Positions 6,196 through 40,043 of a stretch of DNA of 64,000 nt are shown in pieces (position 1 is the stretch's first letter; the number at the start of each line of letters is the position of its first letter). The stretch is from an uncultured Clostridia bacterium (GTDB lineage Bacteria > Bacillota > Clostridia > TANB77 > CAG-508): NCBI GenBank assembly GCA_934130355.1, contig CAKOXV010000006.1, positions 8,541 to 72,540 on the forward strand. The letters are read 5' to 3'. Below the pieces are notes generated by a model. It ran no database searches and was not told the origin of the DNA. It saw only the letters and a program-made list of their open reading frames with translations. Position numbers and translations under genes: made by a program.

Positions 6196-6311
6196 CTAAT
6201 CTCATCCCTTCTTCAAGGCACAAATGTATCACTTATTTATATTTTACTTTATATGGCAAAAAATATCAATACTTCATGAATAAGTTTTATTTTTTTGCAA
6301 ATATTACTAAT

Positions 6312-7922
6312 ATGAATTTTAAAGATTTTTTTAAGTGTTTAATTGAATATAAAAAGCCTTATAATTTTTCAATTATGAATAGCAAATTTAACAGTACTCC
6401 AGAGCCTTGTCAACAAATTCCTAATGTTTATCCTAATGTTAGTGAGAACCTGGAATTTCTTAAAAACAAATATAATGTGTTATTAAATAATGATATTATA
6501 ATACGTGAATTTAGTATGTTTGCATGTGACAAAGAATATCGTTCTTTTATTATTTGTATAGATGGGTTAGTTGATGCTATTTCTATTAATAATTTCATTT
6601 TAGAGCCTTTAATGTTAAAAAAACATAAAAACAGCAATAAATGTTCTCAAGAAAACTTATTAGAATATGTAGATTCTTGTTTGATACCTCAAAACAGTGT
6701 TAAAAAAATTACTGATTTCAAAGATGTTTTTGATGGAATTAATATGGGAGATTGTCTACTTTTCATTGATACTATAAATGTTGCGTTTGATATTGATGTA
6801 AAAAAATTCCCACAACGTGGAATTAGTAATCCTGAAAATGAAGCTGTTGTAAAAGGTCCTCAAGAAGGGTATGTAGAAAATTTAAGAACAAATACATCTC
6901 TTTTAAGACGTAAAATAAATAGTGAAAATCTTGTTATGGAAACTATTTCTGTTGGAAAAGTAAGTCAAACAAAATGTGGAGTATGTTATTTGCAAAACCT
7001 TGCAAATGGCGATTTAGTTGCAGAAGTAAAGTACAGACTCAGTAATTTAGATATAGATTCAATTATATCTACAGGTCAATTAGAACAGCTTATTGAAGAT
7101 GAAGAAGGATTTGGTGTTCCTCAAATGCTTGCAACCGAGAGACCTGACAAATGTGCTAAATATATGCTTCAGGGACGAGTTGTGGTTCTTGTTGATGGTA
7201 ATCCTTATGCATTGATTATGCCTGCAGTGATTGAAGATTTTCTTTTTTCACCAGAAGATACAAACTTAAGACCATTATTTGCTAATTTTTTACGTGGTAT
7301 ACGTCTTCTTGCATCTGTTATAACACTACTTCTCCCTGGCGTTTACATGGCAATTACAAGTTTTCATCAAGAATTATTACCTACAGAATTGTTATTTTCT
7401 ATTCTATCTGCAAGAGAAAACGTTCCTTTTCCAATTATTTTAGAGTTATTGTTGATGGAAATTTCATTTGAACTTATACGTGAGGCTAGTCTTAGAGTTC
7501 CATCTGTTATTGGAGATTCAATTGGAATCGTAGGTGCATTAATTTTAGGTGATGCTGCTGTAAATGCAGGAATTGTTAGTCCTACTCTTATAATTATTGT
7601 TGCTATTACTGGTATTGCATCATTTGCTATTCCTGACTTTTCATTTGTCTTCCACATTCGTATTTTTAGATTTTGGTTTATAGCTCTTGGCTTTACAGCT
7701 GGCTTTTTAGGAATAGGTATTGGACTTTTCATTTATCTTTCTATGTTATGTAGTGTTAAGTCTTTCGGAGTTCCTTATACTACTCCTATTACTCCTTCTC
7801 ATAATACTAGAGGAAATGGATTTTTTATTCCTCCTATTTGGAAACAAGAATATCGTGCTAGTTTTGTTTCTCCAAAGAAGGCTAAATCACAAGCAGATAT
7901 AAGTATGAAATGGAAAAATTAA
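6312..7922 (+). CDS. spore germination protein, GerA family A subunit (start uncertain; track ORF begins at 6174)
   Basis: Typical GerAA/GerKA core: SLLRRKI, ERPDK, GRVVVLVDGNPYALIMPA, and a C-terminal multi-TM region. The 6174 start would overlap the divergent upstream gene, so an internal ATG (6312) is preferred. Confidence 0.8.
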   Translation: MNFKDFFKCLIEYKKPYNFSIMNSKFNSTPEPCQQIPNVYPNVSENLEFLKNKYNVLLNNDIIIREFSMFACDKEYRSFIICIDGLVDAISINNFILEPLMLKKHKNSNKCSQENLLEYVDSCLIPQNSVKKITDFKDVFDGINMGDCLLFIDTINVAFDIDVKKFPQRGISNPENEAVVKGPQEGYVENLRTNTSLLRRKINSENLVMETISVGKVSQTKCGVCYLQNLANGDLVAEVKYRLSNLDIDSIISTGQLEQLIEDEEGFGVPQMLATERPDKCAKYMLQGRVVVLVDGNPYALIMPAVIEDFLFSPEDTNLRPLFANFLRGIRLLASVITLLLPGVYMAITSFHQELLPTELLFSILSARENVPFPIILELLLMEISFELIREASLRVPSVIGDSIGIVGALILGDAAVNAGIVSPTLIIIVAITGIASFAIPDFSFVFHIRIFRFWFIALGFTAGFLGIGIGLFIYLSMLCSVKSFGVPYTTPITPSHNTRGNGFFIPPIWKQEYRASFVSPKKAKSQADISMKWKN

Positions 7923-8560: not shown

Positions 8561-8900
8561 TATTTTAGCCACTTATGGTTCAATACCACCATTACATTAT
8601 ATATATTAAAGTCATTCCAAATTTTGGACAAGCTAAACTTTCGTATAAAATCTAATAGTGCCAAAAGCGCCTCTTTCACTTAGTCCAAAAATTAATATAT
8701 TACTATGAAATAAGGCAAAGACCCCCGACGAAGACCCCAGCTATGTTTTTGCCATGGAATAGTAATATATTAATTTTTGACGTGAACATTCCTCTTTTGG
8801 CACTCTAAGATTTTCTATACTCAAGTTTAGATGCACAAAATTTTCCGTTTTTTAATATATATGATGTAATGGTGGTATTGAGCCATAAGTGGCTAAATTA
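8561..8900 (+). repeat. nested palindromic intergenic element, copy A (outer unique arms + L/R frame + inner hairpin module)
   Basis: Outer arms 8565-8597 and 8864-8896 (33 bp, 1 mismatch). L block 8617-8655, R block 8806-8846. Inner 20-bp perfect stem at 8687-8706 and 8759-8778. Homologous to the copies at 22468, 28547, 39695 and 62644. Confidence 0.9.
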
Positions 8901-21542: not shown

Positions 21543-22382
21543 TTATACTTCCTCTTTCATTTTTGTATTATACTCTTCTTTTAATTTTACGTATTCTTCT
21601 AAATCTTTATCAAAATAATAACATTTTAGAACTTTGTGTACTTGTTCTATATTCCATTGTTTATAATTTTCTGTATGTGGATAAGGCCAAAGAAGCAGTC
21701 TTTTGCAAAAATGGCAAATTACTGTGTCTTTTTTGTTAAATTTTGATTGTTCATTATATATTCTTGGCAATAATTTTTTCTTTGTTGTTGACCAGAATAT
21801 TGCATCTTGGTCTGCAAATAGCATTTTTTTTGTTTTAATCTTTTCTCTTGCTTTTTCTAATAATTTTGTTTCTTTTATTTTTTTCATATTTAACAAAAGC
21901 ATCCCAGCATTTATATAATCTGGTCTAATAAGTTTAGAACCATATTTTTCTCTTACTGCTGCATACTCATAATCTTCAATGTCTGTGTTGTACAATTCTG
22001 ATATGTCTCCACCTGCCATCATGTCTATATCTAAATATAATAATTTGTCAGGAATGTTTGGAACTAAATCTGCAAGTAATCTTAATAATGTATATGGTGT
22101 ACAATACGCATCTTCATTTACACAATTTTTAAATTCTTTTTCGTAGATTTCTGTAACATCTACTTTTATTACTCTATTTTCTGAATTTTTGCTTTTTACG
22201 ACTCTATCTAAAAATTCAATTTGTTCATCTTTTATTTCTGTATATTCTGGTTTTATTCTTGTTAAATTTGCCGTAAATATATAACAAGTTATTGGCTCTT
22301 TTGTTCTATTTGTTATTGATATTAATTCTGTTAGTGCTCCATCAAATACTTTTTCATTTCCACATAATAATAGCTCTATCAT
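21543..22382 (-). CDS. glycosyltransferase family 8 protein
   Basis: 279 aa with YLDIDMM (DxD), NAGMLLLN and FADQDA blocks. Confidence 0.7.
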   Translation of the reverse strand: MIELLLCGNEKVFDGALTELISITNRTKEPITCYIFTANLTRIKPEYTEIKDEQIEFLDRVVKSKNSENRVIKVDVTEIYEKEFKNCVNEDAYCTPYTLLRLLADLVPNIPDKLLYLDIDMMAGGDISELYNTDIEDYEYAAVREKYGSKLIRPDYINAGMLLLNMKKIKETKLLEKAREKIKTKKMLFADQDAIFWSTTKKKLLPRIYNEQSKFNKKDTVICHFCKRLLLWPYPHTENYKQWNIEQVHKVLKCYYFDKDLEEYVKLKEEYNTKMKEEV

Positions 22383-22467
22383 AGTTCTCCTCTTTTATTA
22401 TTTTTTCAATATTATTATTTTAACATTTTATTTAAATTTTATCAATATTTTGTTTTGATTTTTCTTC

Positions 22468-22900
22468 CAAGTTCAAAAAACATGATTTAACAGTTGGAAC
22501 TACACATATATATTGAAAACATTTCAAATTTTGGACAAGCTAAACTTTCGTATAAAATCTAAAAATACAACCCGAGCCTCTCTCACTCAGGCTCAACTTT
22601 ATCAATATGTATAATTTGAATAAATTACGAATGTGACTGGAATAGTGTTATAAATTCTTAAACAAAAGTCATAAAGGGTCCTGTCTTCGGGTATAGTTGT
22701 GACTTTTGTTTTAGAATTTGTTAACGTTATGCAAGGTAGCCGAGTAATTTATGAAAAGTATACATATTGATAAAGTTGCCCGTGAGCATTCCTCGGATAT
22801 GTACTTTAAGATTTTCTATACTCAAGTTTAGATGCACAAAATTTTCCATTATTCAATATATATGTGTAGTCTCAACTGTTAAGTTGTATCTTTTGAACCA
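22468..22900 (+). repeat. nested palindromic intergenic element, copy B (same L/R frame, different inner cargo)
   Basis: L block 22524-22562 and R block 22807-22847 are nearly identical to copy A. The inner 185-bp palindromic module 22594-22778 is unrelated to the A/D/E/F inner module. Outer arms (AACAGTTGGAACTACAC / GTGTAGTCTCAACTGTT) are unique to this locus. Confidence 0.9.
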
Positions 22901-22952
22901 GTAGTTTCAAATAAAAAAGCAGAGAAAAATTTTTTCTCCACTTATTTATTTT

Positions 22953-23498
22953 TTATAATATTTTGTTTACATTTCTCATAAAAATAATGCTTTCAATTAT
23001 ATCAAGTATTGAGTAAATTATCATTATAGTTCCTATTGTTACTACTATTGTACCTGGATTTACAACTGTATATAATCCACACGCAAACATTGTTAATGCT
23101 AGTATTAGGCTCCAAATCCATGTAGTTCCACCAATTTTCTTTATTTGAATTGATGTATTTATGCTTACAAAAGACGCATATATAATCCAAACACCTATTA
23201 TAATTCTAAATATAGAACCAATTAAGTTCATATATGCCATTGCTACAATTCCAATAACAATTGCTGTTAAACCATGTATTAATTCAAAATTATAAAAGTC
23301 TGTATTATCTTTTCTTACAAAATAATCTATTATTTTATAAAATCCTATGATAATAAATGTTGCTCCTAATACAGTTGCAATTGCTTTTACACTTCCTTCA
23401 GGCTTGCAAACTAATACTATTCCTAATATTGCAAATATTATTGATTCAACTATTGATGCAAATCCTGTCTTTTTTAATACTTCTTTTAAATACTCCAT
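22953..23498 (-). CDS. HdeD/DUF308 family membrane protein
   Basis: 181 aa with six predicted TM helices in a repeated pattern. Confidence 0.55.
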   Translation of the reverse strand: MEYLKEVLKKTGFASIVESIIFAILGIVLVCKPEGSVKAIATVLGATFIIIGFYKIIDYFVRKDNTDFYNFELIHGLTAIVIGIVAMAYMNLIGSIFRIIIGVWIIYASFVSINTSIQIKKIGGTTWIWSLILALTMFACGLYTVVNPGTIVVTIGTIMIIYSILDIIESIIFMRNVNKIL

Positions 23499-25687: not shown

Positions 25688-25792
25688 CAAAAAAATTAAT
25701 ATATTACTATGAAATACAGCAAAGCCCCCAGCAAAGACCTTAGCTATGTTTTTGCTATTGAATAATAATATATTAATTTTTTGTAAAGTTTA
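25688..25792 (+). repeat. solo copy of the inner hairpin module (copy C)
   Basis: AAAAAATTAATATATTACTAT...ATAATAATATATTAATTTTTT stem enclosing AGCAAAGCCCCCAGCAAAGACCTTAGCTATGTTTTTGCT. Homologous to the innermost layer of copies A, D, E and F, but without the L/R frame. Confidence 0.85.
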
Positions 25793-25801
25793 AAATATTC
25801 C

Positions 25802-28390
25802 TTATATTTTTAATTCTCCATTTTCACAATCAACCTTAACTGTTGTATTAGGTAAAATCTCTTGAGACAAAATCTTTTTAGCAATCAAGGTTTCAAGTTT
25901 CTTTTGAACAAATCTCTTCAAAGGTCTAGCTCCATAAGCCTCATCATATCCATTATCAATCAAATAATTTTTAGCTGATTCAGTAAGTTCCAATTTAATA
26001 TTTTTATCTTCAAGTCTTTTTTCCAAATCTTTAATTAATAATGAAAGAATTTGAGAAACTTCGCTTTTACGTAATGGTTTATAAAATACAATTTCATCCA
26101 GACGATTTAAAAACTCTGGTCTAAAGCTTCTCTTTAATAATTCTTCAACTTTCTTTTTAGCATCTTCGGAAATCTCACCATTGTCTTGAATTCCCTCTAA
26201 TATATAGTCAGAGCCTAAATTTGAAGTCAATATAATTATTGTATTTTTAAAATCTACAGTTCTTCCTTGTGAATCTGTAATACGTCCATCATCAAGCACT
26301 TGCAATAGTATATTAAATACATCTGGATGAGCTTTTTCTATTTCATCAAACAATACTACTGAATAAGGTTTTCTTCTTACTGCTTCTGTTAATTGTCCAC
26401 CTTCTTCATATCCAACATATCCTGGAGGTGCACCAATTAGTCTTGATACTGAATATTTTTCCATGTATTCAGACATATCAATTCTTACCATGTTATGTTC
26501 ATCATCAAATAATGCGTCTGCAAGTGATTTAGCAAGTTCAGTTTTTCCAACACCTGTTGGTCCAAGGAACATAAATGAGCCTATAGGTCTACGTGGATCA
26601 CCTATACCAGCTCTTGAACGCATTATAGCTTCAGATACTTTTTCAACTGCTTCATCTTGACCAATTACTCTTTTATGAAGTATTTTATCAAGATTTAGTA
26701 TTTTTTCTCTTTCACCTTCCATAAGTTTTGCTACTGGTATTCCTGTCCATCTTGAAATTATTTTTGTAATTTCTTCTTCTGTAACTTTATTTCTAAGTAG
26801 TCCTTCTTCTTTACTTTTTTCTGCTTCGTGTTCTTCTTGTTCTAATTCTTTTTGCAACTCAGGTAATTTTCCATATCTTAATTCTGCGACTTTATTTAAG
26901 TCATAACTTCTTTCTGCTTGTTCAATTTGTGCATTTGTTTGTTCTATTTCTTCACGTAGTTTTTGAACTTTTCCAATAGCTGCCTTCTCATTTTCCCATT
27001 TTGCTTTCATTGCATCAAATTTAGTTTTTAATTCTGATTTCTCTTTTTGAATATCTGCTAAACGCTTTTTAGAAATTTCATCTTTTTCTTTGCTTAACGC
27101 TGTTTCTTCTATTTCTAATTGCATTATTTTTCTTGAAACTTCGTCAAGTTCTGTTGGCATTGACTCCATTTCTGTTTTAATCATGGCACAAGCTTCATCT
27201 ATCAAATCTATTGCTTTATCAGGTAAAAATCTATCAGATATATATCTATGTGATAACGTTGCTGCTGCAATTAATGCATTGTCTGAAATCTTAACACCAT
27301 GATATACTTCATATCTTTCCTTTAATCCTCTTAATATTGAAATTGTATCTTCAACTGTTGGTTCATCTACCATTACAGGTTGAAAACGTCTTTCAAGTGC
27401 TTGGTCTTTCTCAATATATTGTCTATATTCATTTAATGTTGTTGCACCTATACAATGTAATTCACCACGTGCTAGCATTGGCTTTAACAAATTGCCTGCA
27501 TCCATTGCCCCCTCAGTTTTTCCTGCTCCTACTATTGTGTGAATTTCATCAATGAATAAGATTATTTTTCCTTCGCTTTTTTTGACTTCTTGTAATACTG
27601 CTTTTAGTCTTTCTTCAAATTCTCCTCTATATTTAGCCCCTGCAACTAATGAACCCATATCTAGTGAAAATATTGTACAGTCTTTTAATCCTTCTGGTAC
27701 ATCTCCTCTAACTATTCTTAGTGCAAGCCCTTCTGCAATTGCTGTTTTACCAACACCTGGTTCGCCAATTAAACATGGATTATTTTTGGTTTTCCTTGAT
27801 AGAATTCTTATAACATTCCTGATTTCGTCATCTCTTCCTATTACAGGGTCTAATTTTTGTTTTCTTGCCATCTCAACCAAATCTTGTCCATATTTTTTCA
27901 GTGCATCATAGGTTTCTTCTGGATTATCTGTTGTTACTCTAGTATTTCCTCTAACTTGTAATAAAGCTTTTAAAAAGTCATTTTTGTTTATATTATATGT
28001 TTTTAAGATATCTTTTACTTCTCTGTTTGCATTATCAAAAATTGAAAGCATAATATGTTCAACAGAAACATATTCATCATTCATTTTCTTTGCTATTGTT
28101 TCAGCATTTGCCAAGACTCTATCTACATCTTGTGCTACATATATTCCATCATTTGGTCGTGCTCCTCCTGTCATTTTCGGTTTATTATTTACGTTATTTC
28201 TTACTGTTTGTTCTAATGCCTCTTCATTAGCCATTTTCTTAATTAATTCTTTTATTAAGCTATTTTCTTGTTCTAATAATGCTAATAATAAATGCTCTTG
28301 CTCTACTTGCGTATTTTGATTTTCTGTTGCTATTGTTTGAGCATTTTGTATTGCTTCAATTGATTTTTGTGTAAATTTTTGAATATTCAT
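25802..28390 (-). CDS. clpB: ATP-dependent chaperone ClpB
   Basis: 862 aa. Two AAA+ modules ([22 protein letters not shown]) separated by a long coiled-coil middle domain. Confidence 0.95.
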
Positions 28391-39694: not shown

Positions 39695-40043
39695 AAGAGG
39701 GCAAGAGTAGTTGGCAGATAACATCACACAGCTTATCTAATAAAATGAATGAAAGATTTTGTGTATCTAAACTTAACATTAGAAAATCTTATATAATAAT
39801 ATGAGGGATGTTCACGGGGGAAAAGTTAATATATAACTATTCCATAGCAAAAACATAGCTGGGGTCTTCGTCGGGGGTCTTTGCTTTATTTCATAGTTAT
39901 ATATTAACTTTTTCAGCCTGAGTGAAAGAGGCTCATATTATTAAATTAGATTTTCTTTGGGAAGTTTAGCTTATTCAAAATCTGTAATGACATTTTATTA
40001 GATAAGCTGTGTGATGTTATCTGCCAACCACTGTTGCCCTCTT
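39695..40043 (-). repeat. nested palindromic intergenic element, copy E (inverted orientation, diverged frame, ~52-bp unique outer arms)
   Basis: Outer arms AAGAGGGCAAGAGTAGTTGGCAGATAACATCACACAGCTTATCTAATAAAATG and its near-perfect inverse. The inner module 39828-39915 is the reverse complement of the copy A module (GGGGTCTTCGTCGGGGGTC loop). Confidence 0.85.

Follow-up and report, generated by a model that had tools for sequence, protein, structure and literature searches.

A modular family of nested hairpin repeats in a Clostridia genome, with centres that probably turn over in resident elements

Introduction

The pdif (Xer) modules of Acinetobacter plasmids are discrete modules swapped between identical inverted boundary sites. 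Quasipalindrome correction is the template-switch mutagenesis in imperfect inverted repeats associated with the names of Ripley and Lovett. Integron attC sites are imperfect palindromes of 57–141 bp, read as folded single strands, and flank open reading frame (ORF) cassettes beside the integron integrase. Bacterial miniature inverted-repeat transposable elements (MITEs; Correia/NEMIS, ERIC, RUP and Nezha) are non-autonomous, with defined ends. Repetitive extragenic palindromes (REPs) and REPINs, which go together with REP-associated tyrosine transposases (RAYTs), are dispersed, hairpin-forming and multi-copy (Bertels & Rainey 2011, PMC3116915; PMC5581495), and the ssoA (palA) single-strand origins are imperfect hairpins of ~120–160 nt (PMC5703833, PMC4598088). 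Here, these systems are compared with copy B, a nested palindrome in a stretch of 64,000 nt (hereafter the window) from an uncultured Clostridia bacterium (assembly GCA_934130355.1, contig CAKOXV010000006.1, positions 8,541 to 72,540).

Copy B belongs to a family of hairpin repeats of which about 34 complete frame copies, plus fragments, were found in the host assembly (G000; 1.35 Mb, 28% G+C, 32 contigs, 93.8% complete), many of them at contig ends. The repeats account for about 1% of this small gut-Clostridia genome and break its assemblies. No description of the family was found in a full-text literature search. New here are the identity and structure of the B tip (the conserved part of copy B's centre), its genus-wide spread, an exact breakpoint common to different centres, the ancestral combination of frame and B tip, and evidence from orthologous sites for the turnover of centres. 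We propose, with moderate confidence, that the elements are resident and that turnover of their centres proceeds through gene conversion or through template switching from one copy to another. The relatives analyzed (genomes G, contigs C) are a sample consisting mostly of metagenome-assembled genomes, where repeats are often unassembled.

Results

One frame with different centres

An earlier note, made from the letters of the window, had described in copy B the frame of other copies around a different palindromic centre. All the sequences that it quoted were confirmed in place. The element is present as quoted there but longer than flagged, a non-coding nested imperfect palindrome of ~445 bp at roughly 22463–22907, which genome self-alignment recovered as C6:31011–31438 (window 22471–22898). 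Its L frame (22520–22562) is indeed shared, with 0–1 mismatch to copies at 8613(+), 28580(+) and 62909(−) against a chance expectation of 0. The nested palindrome of the centre was likewise borne out: the window has just two copies of the 20-mer that bounds it, CAACTTTATCAATATGTATA, in opposite orientations at 22594(+) and 22759(−); the inner arms (22652–22674 and 22697–22719) are 91% complementary; and the folding energy of the 185-nt centre is −40.8 kcal/mol (z = −10.7 versus shuffles).

The centre behaves as an exchangeable, discrete module with base-exact breakpoints. With slashes at the junctions, copy B reads CACTCAGGCT/CAACTTT...AAGTTG/CCCGTGAG, and copy E, which carries the other module, reads CACTCAGGCT/GAAAAAGTT...CTTTTC/CCCCGTGAAC. 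The cargo of copy B begins right after CTCAGGCT (22593) and stops right before CCCG (22779); the A tip of copy E sits between the same CTCAGGCT and CCCCG. Since the A and B tips are bounded at the same base in these two copies, the breakpoint is defined to the base. A target-site duplication, which the earlier note had raised for the module/frame junctions, was visible at none of them, and none was recognisable at the outer ends or cargo junctions, where AT-rich flanks limit the power of the search.

Alignment of all copies gave a constant order of layers: ends (TTACTAGTTAATA...), arms of ~50 nt, a ATACATATATATTAAA box, asymmetric L and R frames, a shell made of a variable stem and GAGCCTCTYTCAC ... 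GTGARCATTCCTC, a short linker and the cargo. The ends follow the loose consensus TTACTAGTTAATA at both termini. Over 34 copies, the outer arms are 87% complementary within a copy and only ~44–56% identical between copies, with balanced mismatches (G·T 69 vs A·C 57). In the shell, the change CTCAC/GTGAG versus TTCAC/GTGAA is compensatory. On the minus strand, at 22569–22593, the linker CTCAGGCT pairs with shell GAGCCT in B-type copies and is followed by a T-rich run, a pairing that scored as terminator-like in a scan and is absent from A-type copies.

The 185-bp B centre is present in three frame copies of the host genome, on C6 (the window), C3 (100% identical) and C24 (97%), and a fourth, diverged one lies on C13; all four sit within frames.

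Structure and constraint of the B tip

The discrete conserved unit of the centre is a 117-nt core, 22628–22744 (the B tip), together with its own arms of ~34 bp. The core is laid out as CGAATGYGACYRGAATAGT-TTACAAATTCT-(variable stem)-AAAGGGTCCTGTYTYCGGGTATTGTT-(variable stem)-AGAATTTGTTAAC-GTTATGNAGGGTAGCCGAG. Its helices are GYGAC/GKTARC, ACAAATTCT/AGAATTTGT and a variable, covarying stem, after which comes the apex; the internal loops are conserved in sequence. Across 47 distinct sequences, with cells counted rather than independent events, 95.9% of cells are paired and both sides change in 30 of 41 pairs. The covariation score is 0.44, versus 0.16 for shuffles (0 of 500 reach 0.44) and at most 0.10 with partners slid. 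Two short helices within the apparent internal loop also covary (C-G 19, U-A 11 and U-G 13 in one; C-G 27 and U-A 15 in the other).

Wobble pairs are distributed very unevenly in the B tip, with 107 G·T versus 6 A·C across at least 15 pair positions, and its covariance model scores the plus strand at 167 bits and the minus strand at 40. Because G·T far outnumber A·C, the B tip is constrained as a folded single strand of one polarity, single-stranded DNA (ssDNA) or RNA. The long arms behave as plain double-stranded DNA palindromes.

These features leave practically no chance to the idea that the centre of copy B is filler that drifted from the module present in copies A and D. A few short stretches in the two centres do align in MAFFT, but the B tip has covarying helices of its own, is more conserved across species than the frame, and occurs without a frame in dozens of genomes.

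A structured non-coding RNA would show the same covariation, one-strand tolerance of wobbles and sequence-conserved internal loops, and the B tip or whole hairpin could be read as an RNA gene family with the long arms as RNA stems. We hold this to be improbable. In Rfam 15 only RNase P and 6S were found in the window at the gathering threshold, and only chance miRNA-like matches in 22400–22960 at E ≤ 10. Copy B is intergenic, between a DUF308 gene (22953–23498, minus strand) and a GT8 glycosyltransferase gene (21543–22382, minus strand), and the DUF308 gene's own terminator lies between its stop and copy B. Apart from that terminator and the local shell hairpin, terminators were found at chance level, as were promoter-like sites, and neither a promoter nor a terminator is conserved. 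Orientation relative to neighbouring genes was not significantly biased (B tips 8 sense and 16 antisense, p = 0.15; frames 20/10, p = 0.10; A tips 21/25) and therefore supports neither read-through transcription nor lagging-strand targeting. The arms show no strand asymmetry. Moreover, copies are flipped, symmetrised, deleted or absent at orthologous sites, and the abundance of at least 20 copies per 1.5–2 Mb genome is typical of a selfish repeat.

A further reading connects the B tip with the ssoA origins of rolling-circle plasmids; in such a role it would recruit RNA polymerase and so prime synthesis of the complementary strand from a single-stranded intermediate. In both, imperfect hairpins of ~120–160 nt depend on strand and orientation (PMC5703833). 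In the B tip, GCCGAG(A/T)AATTTAT (GCCGAGWAATTTAT) after TTATG resembles the recombination site B (RSB) box TTATGCCGAGAAAATTT (PMC4598088), matching at 14 of 15 positions with one gap, and CGAATGT...ATAGTGT resembles pC194 ACGAATGTCGGCATAGCGT around CS-6. However, even at best the local alignment scores do not clearly exceed those of shuffles (consensus, p = 0.03; window copy, p = 0.3), the order of motifs is permuted, and CS-6 (TAGCGT) is absent from the apex, which reads GGGTCCTGTCTTCGGGTAT. The B-tip covariance model gave no match in the pC194 ssoA, and BLAST of the element against 72,556 plasmids and 50,697 phages found no similarity. We consider a relationship to ssoA very improbable and, having rejected homology on these grounds, keep the RSB resemblance as a weak lead.

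Distribution of tips, frames and arm families

By BLAST, 62 of the 150 genus genomes sampled contain the B cargo, mostly as several copies, and its core lies within many unrelated palindromic arms. The covariance model matched 14 of 24 genus genomes, three genomes from two other genera of the family and 2 of 31 genomes of a second family of the order (both in one genus), with copy numbers of at least 20 in G099 and G134. Variants B2 and B3 share the outer shell and have other apices. The search for solo copies of the 185-bp module, suggested in the earlier note, returned none of the exact module in the host genome. The B tip, on the other hand, is frameless in many genomes, and the host has one diverged B2-type tip at C10:33907–34059 (within C10:33880–34085; 63.7 bits), which has its own 27-bp arms, adjoins a gene end and is the sole member of the B-tip superfamily outside frames there. 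The B tip is a genus-wide and old module.

The frame was encountered in three states. It is empty, closed by a small hairpin, in G020, G010, G105, G113 and the host (C13:27834–28060). It holds the B tip in many species, among them G105, G113, G127, G065, G041, G059, G129, G095 and G098, and also, with the tip inverted against the frame, G136. It holds the A tip, which is unrelated to B, in the host genome only, among the genomes searched. The empty frames at host C13:27834–28060 and G020:C2:91822–91998 have the same short flanking arms (TTGTGATATAC...), apparently at the same locus in two species, and may represent an old, conserved, cargo-less member of the family, orthologous between them.

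Both tips also occur in other surroundings. G105 and G113, the closest relatives, have abundant A tips, which lie inside doublets of a GGGGACGGTYC repeat and not in frames; members of this REP family also flank a RAYT-like Y1 gene. Altogether, at least four unrelated kinds of palindrome have the A tip exactly at their centre (the L/R frame, REP doublets, and the arms of C16, C15 and C3). A frameless B tip is contained in a sharply bounded MITE of ~233 bp with GTTACAGTTCAGTA ends in G044, G049 and G066, and at G044:C8:51462–51623 a MITE with these ends carries an A-like tip instead. Tips thus combine freely with arm families.

These distributions reverse the order of events in the earlier note, according to which the B cargo replaces the other module: frame plus B tip is widespread in related species, and frame plus A tip was seen in the host alone. 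Of the two, frame plus B tip is the older arrangement, and copy B a survivor and not an innovation. The A tip has taken over most frames in the host lineage, copy B being one of the 3–4 that still carry B.

Turnover of centres in resident elements

For G113 and G105, the sequences flanking B-type and empty frames were mapped onto the host genome. Six of the orthologous sites hold an element with an A tip, and five are empty (Table 1). The flanks of the G113 C5:56506 element map to two host contigs, C11:26800–27020 and C22:12960–13160, each time beside half of an A-tip element; this split suggests a rearrangement or a large insertion through that element.

Frames and cargoes were compared between copies of the host genome. 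Frame identity is 93.6% among B-type copies and 92.9% between B-type copies and A-type copies of subfamily (ii), and the frame nearest to that of copy B belongs to an A-type copy (97%). The histories of cargo and frame disagree, because the cargoes of the C6 and C3 copies are 100% identical over 185 bp while their frames are only ~93% identical. Shells are mosaics of subfamilies (i) and (ii).

Several copies have been rewritten internally, and these footprints of template switching are a third line of evidence that points to replacement in place. The A tips of C25_8911 and C14_19994 are inverted in place. In C14_10548 an internal loop has become the perfect complement of its partner, and in C2_6437 (C2:6437–6677) and C5_14673 (C5:14673–14911) the asymmetric stretch of the L frame now matches the complement of R exactly (CTAAACTTGAGTATAGAAAATCT), with in-place loss of the frame's conserved asymmetry. 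Internal deletions at short direct repeats have removed the B-tip centre (helices 2–3 and apex) in G105:C12:53358–53653, G049:C10:16634–16774 and G014:C94, leaving the halves of the internal loop joined.

As between cassette exchange and repeated insertion, the orthologous sites and the conflict of cargo with frame favour replacement in place. In the mechanism that we propose, centres would be replaced within resident elements, and the conserved frame and shell would be the homology arms through which dispersed copies undergo gene conversion or replication template switching with one another. Inside a single hairpin, template switching of the quasipalindrome-correction type would maintain the complementarity of the arms during drift, and would sometimes flip or symmetrise inner parts. 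Because homology alone is insufficient for the first entry of a tip into an unrelated arm family, a transposition-like step into the hairpin apex would be needed there.

Several observations weigh against turnover in resident elements. Between species the arms cannot be aligned, and the elements at orthologous sites may therefore be different insertions, with favoured intergenic sites used repeatedly. The site of the B-type C3 copy is empty in G064, G065 and G105, so that whole B-type elements also moved, or were lost elsewhere; and the arms of this copy differ from those of copy B though the cargo is identical. Copy B itself is identical in four other strain assemblies, where short contigs end within the element, and this invariance speaks against turnover. 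Finally, searches for a mobilising enzyme (Y1, RAYT-like or IS110) identified none. By tblastn and Pfam search, no Y1 transposase was found in the host assembly, within its stated completeness; in G113 and G105 only GGGGACGG REPs, and no tips, flank the RAYT-like genes; and 30 IS110 loci from 30 genus genomes contained no tip or frame halves.

At the copy-B locus, the right outer arm carries opposite-arm variants in two other strain assemblies, a further footprint of template switching. Synteny of this locus with five relatives is not conserved.

Candidate mobilising enzymes and boundary sites

The lack of association in the 30 loci led to rejection of IS110 as an element that lands in the repeats or mobilises them. 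IS200/RAYT was rejected as well: the gene exists in the genus but is flanked by a different repeat, four RAYT loci that were searched gave no tip or frame match, and it was not found in the host assembly. Neither the IS110 and Y1 loci nor the surroundings of solo ends yielded an autonomous element whose ends match, in a search that was not exhaustive. A REP repeat of the AATTTGGGGACGGTCCTTTTTTTCGCGAA type flanks, in inverted orientation, a Y1 (RAYT-like) gene of ~260 aa in G113 and G105. The host assembly has ~49 classical REP units of this kind (AATTTGGGGACGGTCCTTTTTTTCGCGAA; for instance C5:31088–31218), often as tandem or inverted doublets, and the exact motif does not occur in the window's contig.

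The tips might themselves be the true mobile units, with an enzyme acting on ssDNA (HUH/Y1 or other) inserting them site-specifically into the apical loops of extruded hairpins, the frame having been hit independently by A and by B. This is possible, though unlikely in our estimation. Y1 proteins are near-universal in the genus (125 of 150 genomes), but no Y1 gene was found flanked by tips, and none in the host genome. Both tips enter the frame at the same base, the A tip is centred in at least four unrelated kinds of palindrome, and some solo A tips have almost no arms, all of which insertion would explain; yet the A-tip junctions have neither a conserved target motif nor a duplication. Constraint of the tip as one folded strand would suit an ssDNA-acting enzyme, whereas the unbiased orientation of tips (B 8:16, A 21:25) gives no sign of lagging-strand targeting. 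The discordance of cargo and frame is explained equally by conversion.

A broader claim, that the tips (B, B2/B3 and A) are new minimal mobile modules, strand-specific folded elements of ~60–120 nt that colonise the symmetry centre of any hairpin repeat (REP doublets, MITEs or the L/R frame), strikes us as rather doubtful. If it held, the tips would live as parasites on other repeats, and either an unrecognised enzyme reading single strands or the replication machinery itself would move them.

The flipping of inner parts, which template switching would produce, would also be accounted for by inverted recombination sites. As has been proposed for pdif modules, the ends of the elements could mimic the host Xer/dif site, and a host tyrosine recombinase could move, invert or exchange them. 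The 15-nt MITE end GTTACAGTTCAGTAA of G049 and G044 is the core of a 10-6-10 palindrome, ATTATGTTAC-AGTTCA-GTAACATAAT, whose arms resemble the XerD-arm consensus TTATGTTA and which lies ~95 nt upstream of a conserved XerC/D-like gene. Perfect copies of the palindrome are located at G049:C1:99640–99680 and G044:C7:~70039. The site is, however, not conserved upstream of the orthologous gene in G000, G113, G078, G136 and G064, and inverted Xer-like boundary sites are seen in the G049/G044 subfamily only. The palindrome may be a dif-like site mimicked by the MITE ends, or else a collapsed MITE remnant, and nothing ties it to the inner cargo junctions of copy B. We give Xer-mediated exchange only a very small chance. 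At G105:C3:98430–98460, ~110 nt upstream of an XerC/D-like gene, AAAAATG-TATATA-TTATGTAAATA resembles the Firmicutes dif consensus, as in Bacillus subtilis.

Feature coordinates

Table 1. Features of copy B and related elements. Positions are those of the window unless a contig of the host genome (G000) is named.
Feature	Position	Strand	Basis
Whole copy-B element	22463–22907	.	Self-alignment, arm complementarity
Left outer arm, copy-specific, pairs with 22852–22898	22471–22517	.	85% complementary
Right outer arm	22852–22898	.	Pairs with 22471–22517
L frame, conserved, asymmetric relative to R	22520–22562	+	Copy alignment
R frame	22807–22850	+	Copy alignment
Left shell: variable stem plus conserved GAGCCTCTCTCAC	22563–22586	+	Shell subfamily (ii), common to 19 A-type copies
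Right shell: GTGAGCATTCCTC plus variable stem	22782–22806	+	Alignment
Left linker TCAGGCT, cargo directly after	22587–22593	+	Also in copy E (A tip) and B-type copies of G105, G113 and G127
Right linker CCC, cargo ends directly before	22779–22781	+	Junction alignment
185-bp cargo: B tip plus own ~34-bp arms	22594–22778	+	C6 and C3 copies 100% identical
B-tip conserved core, CGAATGTGAC to GGTAGCCGAG	22628–22744	+	Alignment, covariation, covariance model
Apex GGGTCCTGTCTTCGGGTAT, CCUG/CGGG stem with conserved U·G pair	22677–22695	+	Alignment, covariation
GCCGAGTAATTTAT, resembling the RSB box of ssoA origins (weak lead)	22739–22752	+	Alignment
Copy E: diverged frame, A tip at same linker position as B cargo	39695–40043	−	C6_48287; frame 69% identical to other copies
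Solo A tip, without frame	25688–25792	+	Sequence comparison
G105:C12, B-type; A-type in G000	C1:34085–34378		
G113:C23, B-type; A-type in G000	C1:9574–9937		
G113:C5:56506, B-type; decayed A-type in G000	C11:~26800–27020		
G113:C10, B-type; flipped A tip plus R frame in G000	C5:~6290–6480		
G105:C2:2990, empty frame; A-type in G000	C1:39279–39623		
G113:C21, empty frame; solo A tip in G000	C7:74759–74849		
Five further G113/G105 sites; empty in G000			

Discussion

The B tip is a well-supported new structured motif, and its alignment and covariance model can be used for metagenome searches and tests for protein partners. The family unites a conserved single-strand module with arms that evolve freely yet stay self-complementary and with centres exchanged at one fixed position. 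As a whole it offers a natural system for the survival of long palindromes, for the shaping of repeats by template switching or gene conversion, and for the way in which non-autonomous elements gain parts.

In comparison with described systems, the family does not belong to the REPINs, attC sites, ssoA origins or any Rfam family, and it fits the definition of MITEs in part, through its ends. Like REPs and REPINs, the family is dispersed, intergenic, hairpin-forming, non-coding and multi-copy; its inner conserved part is constrained as a folded single strand while the arms stay complementary, and the genus has a typical RAYT flanked by inverted REPs, of which the host genome has ~49. Unlike them, copy B (22463–22907) lacks the GGGGAC(N)G(N)YC unit, the host's 49 REPs being located elsewhere; it is 445 bp long with four nested layers; its conserved part is the apex and not the arms; its centre is exchangeable between unrelated arm families; and at the RAYT genes the flanking repeats are GGGGACGG REPs instead of tips or frames.

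With the bacterial MITEs, the family shares its non-autonomous character, defined ends with loose terminal inverted repeats (TTACTAGTTAAT here, GTTACAGTTCAGTA in G049, in whose subfamily the ends are sharp), copy numbers in the tens and deletion derivatives. It differs from them in that neither a target-site duplication nor an autonomous partner was found, in that the centre is modular, and in that the arms are ~50% identical between copies yet self-complementary.

Integron attC sites likewise are imperfect palindromes read as folded single strands, with a conserved framework, variable parts and a link to cassette exchange. By contrast to attC, which flanks ORF cassettes, copy B is 445 bp long and its cargo has no ORF; it is the apex, not the base, that is conserved in the family, and the copies are dispersed between housekeeping genes. 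The exchange of discrete modules between identical boundaries in inverted orientation is reminiscent of pdif modules, whereas here a dif-like end was seen in the G049/G044 MITE subfamily only, gene cargo is absent, and the copies are chromosomal and dispersed. The ssoA origins have in common with the B tip a strand-specific imperfect hairpin of ~120–160 nt and a short RSB-like box; the B tip has a permuted motif order, no CS-6 and no plasmid context, and the similarity is not statistically secure (PMC5703833, PMC4598088).

The rewriting of one arm as the exact complement of the other and the inversion of inner segments in place are what quasipalindrome correction would leave, with the difference that a whole repeat family is affected here and that the process is proposed to extend to exchange between copies. 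By analogy, the family would work most like REPINs and MITEs combined with quasipalindrome dynamics.

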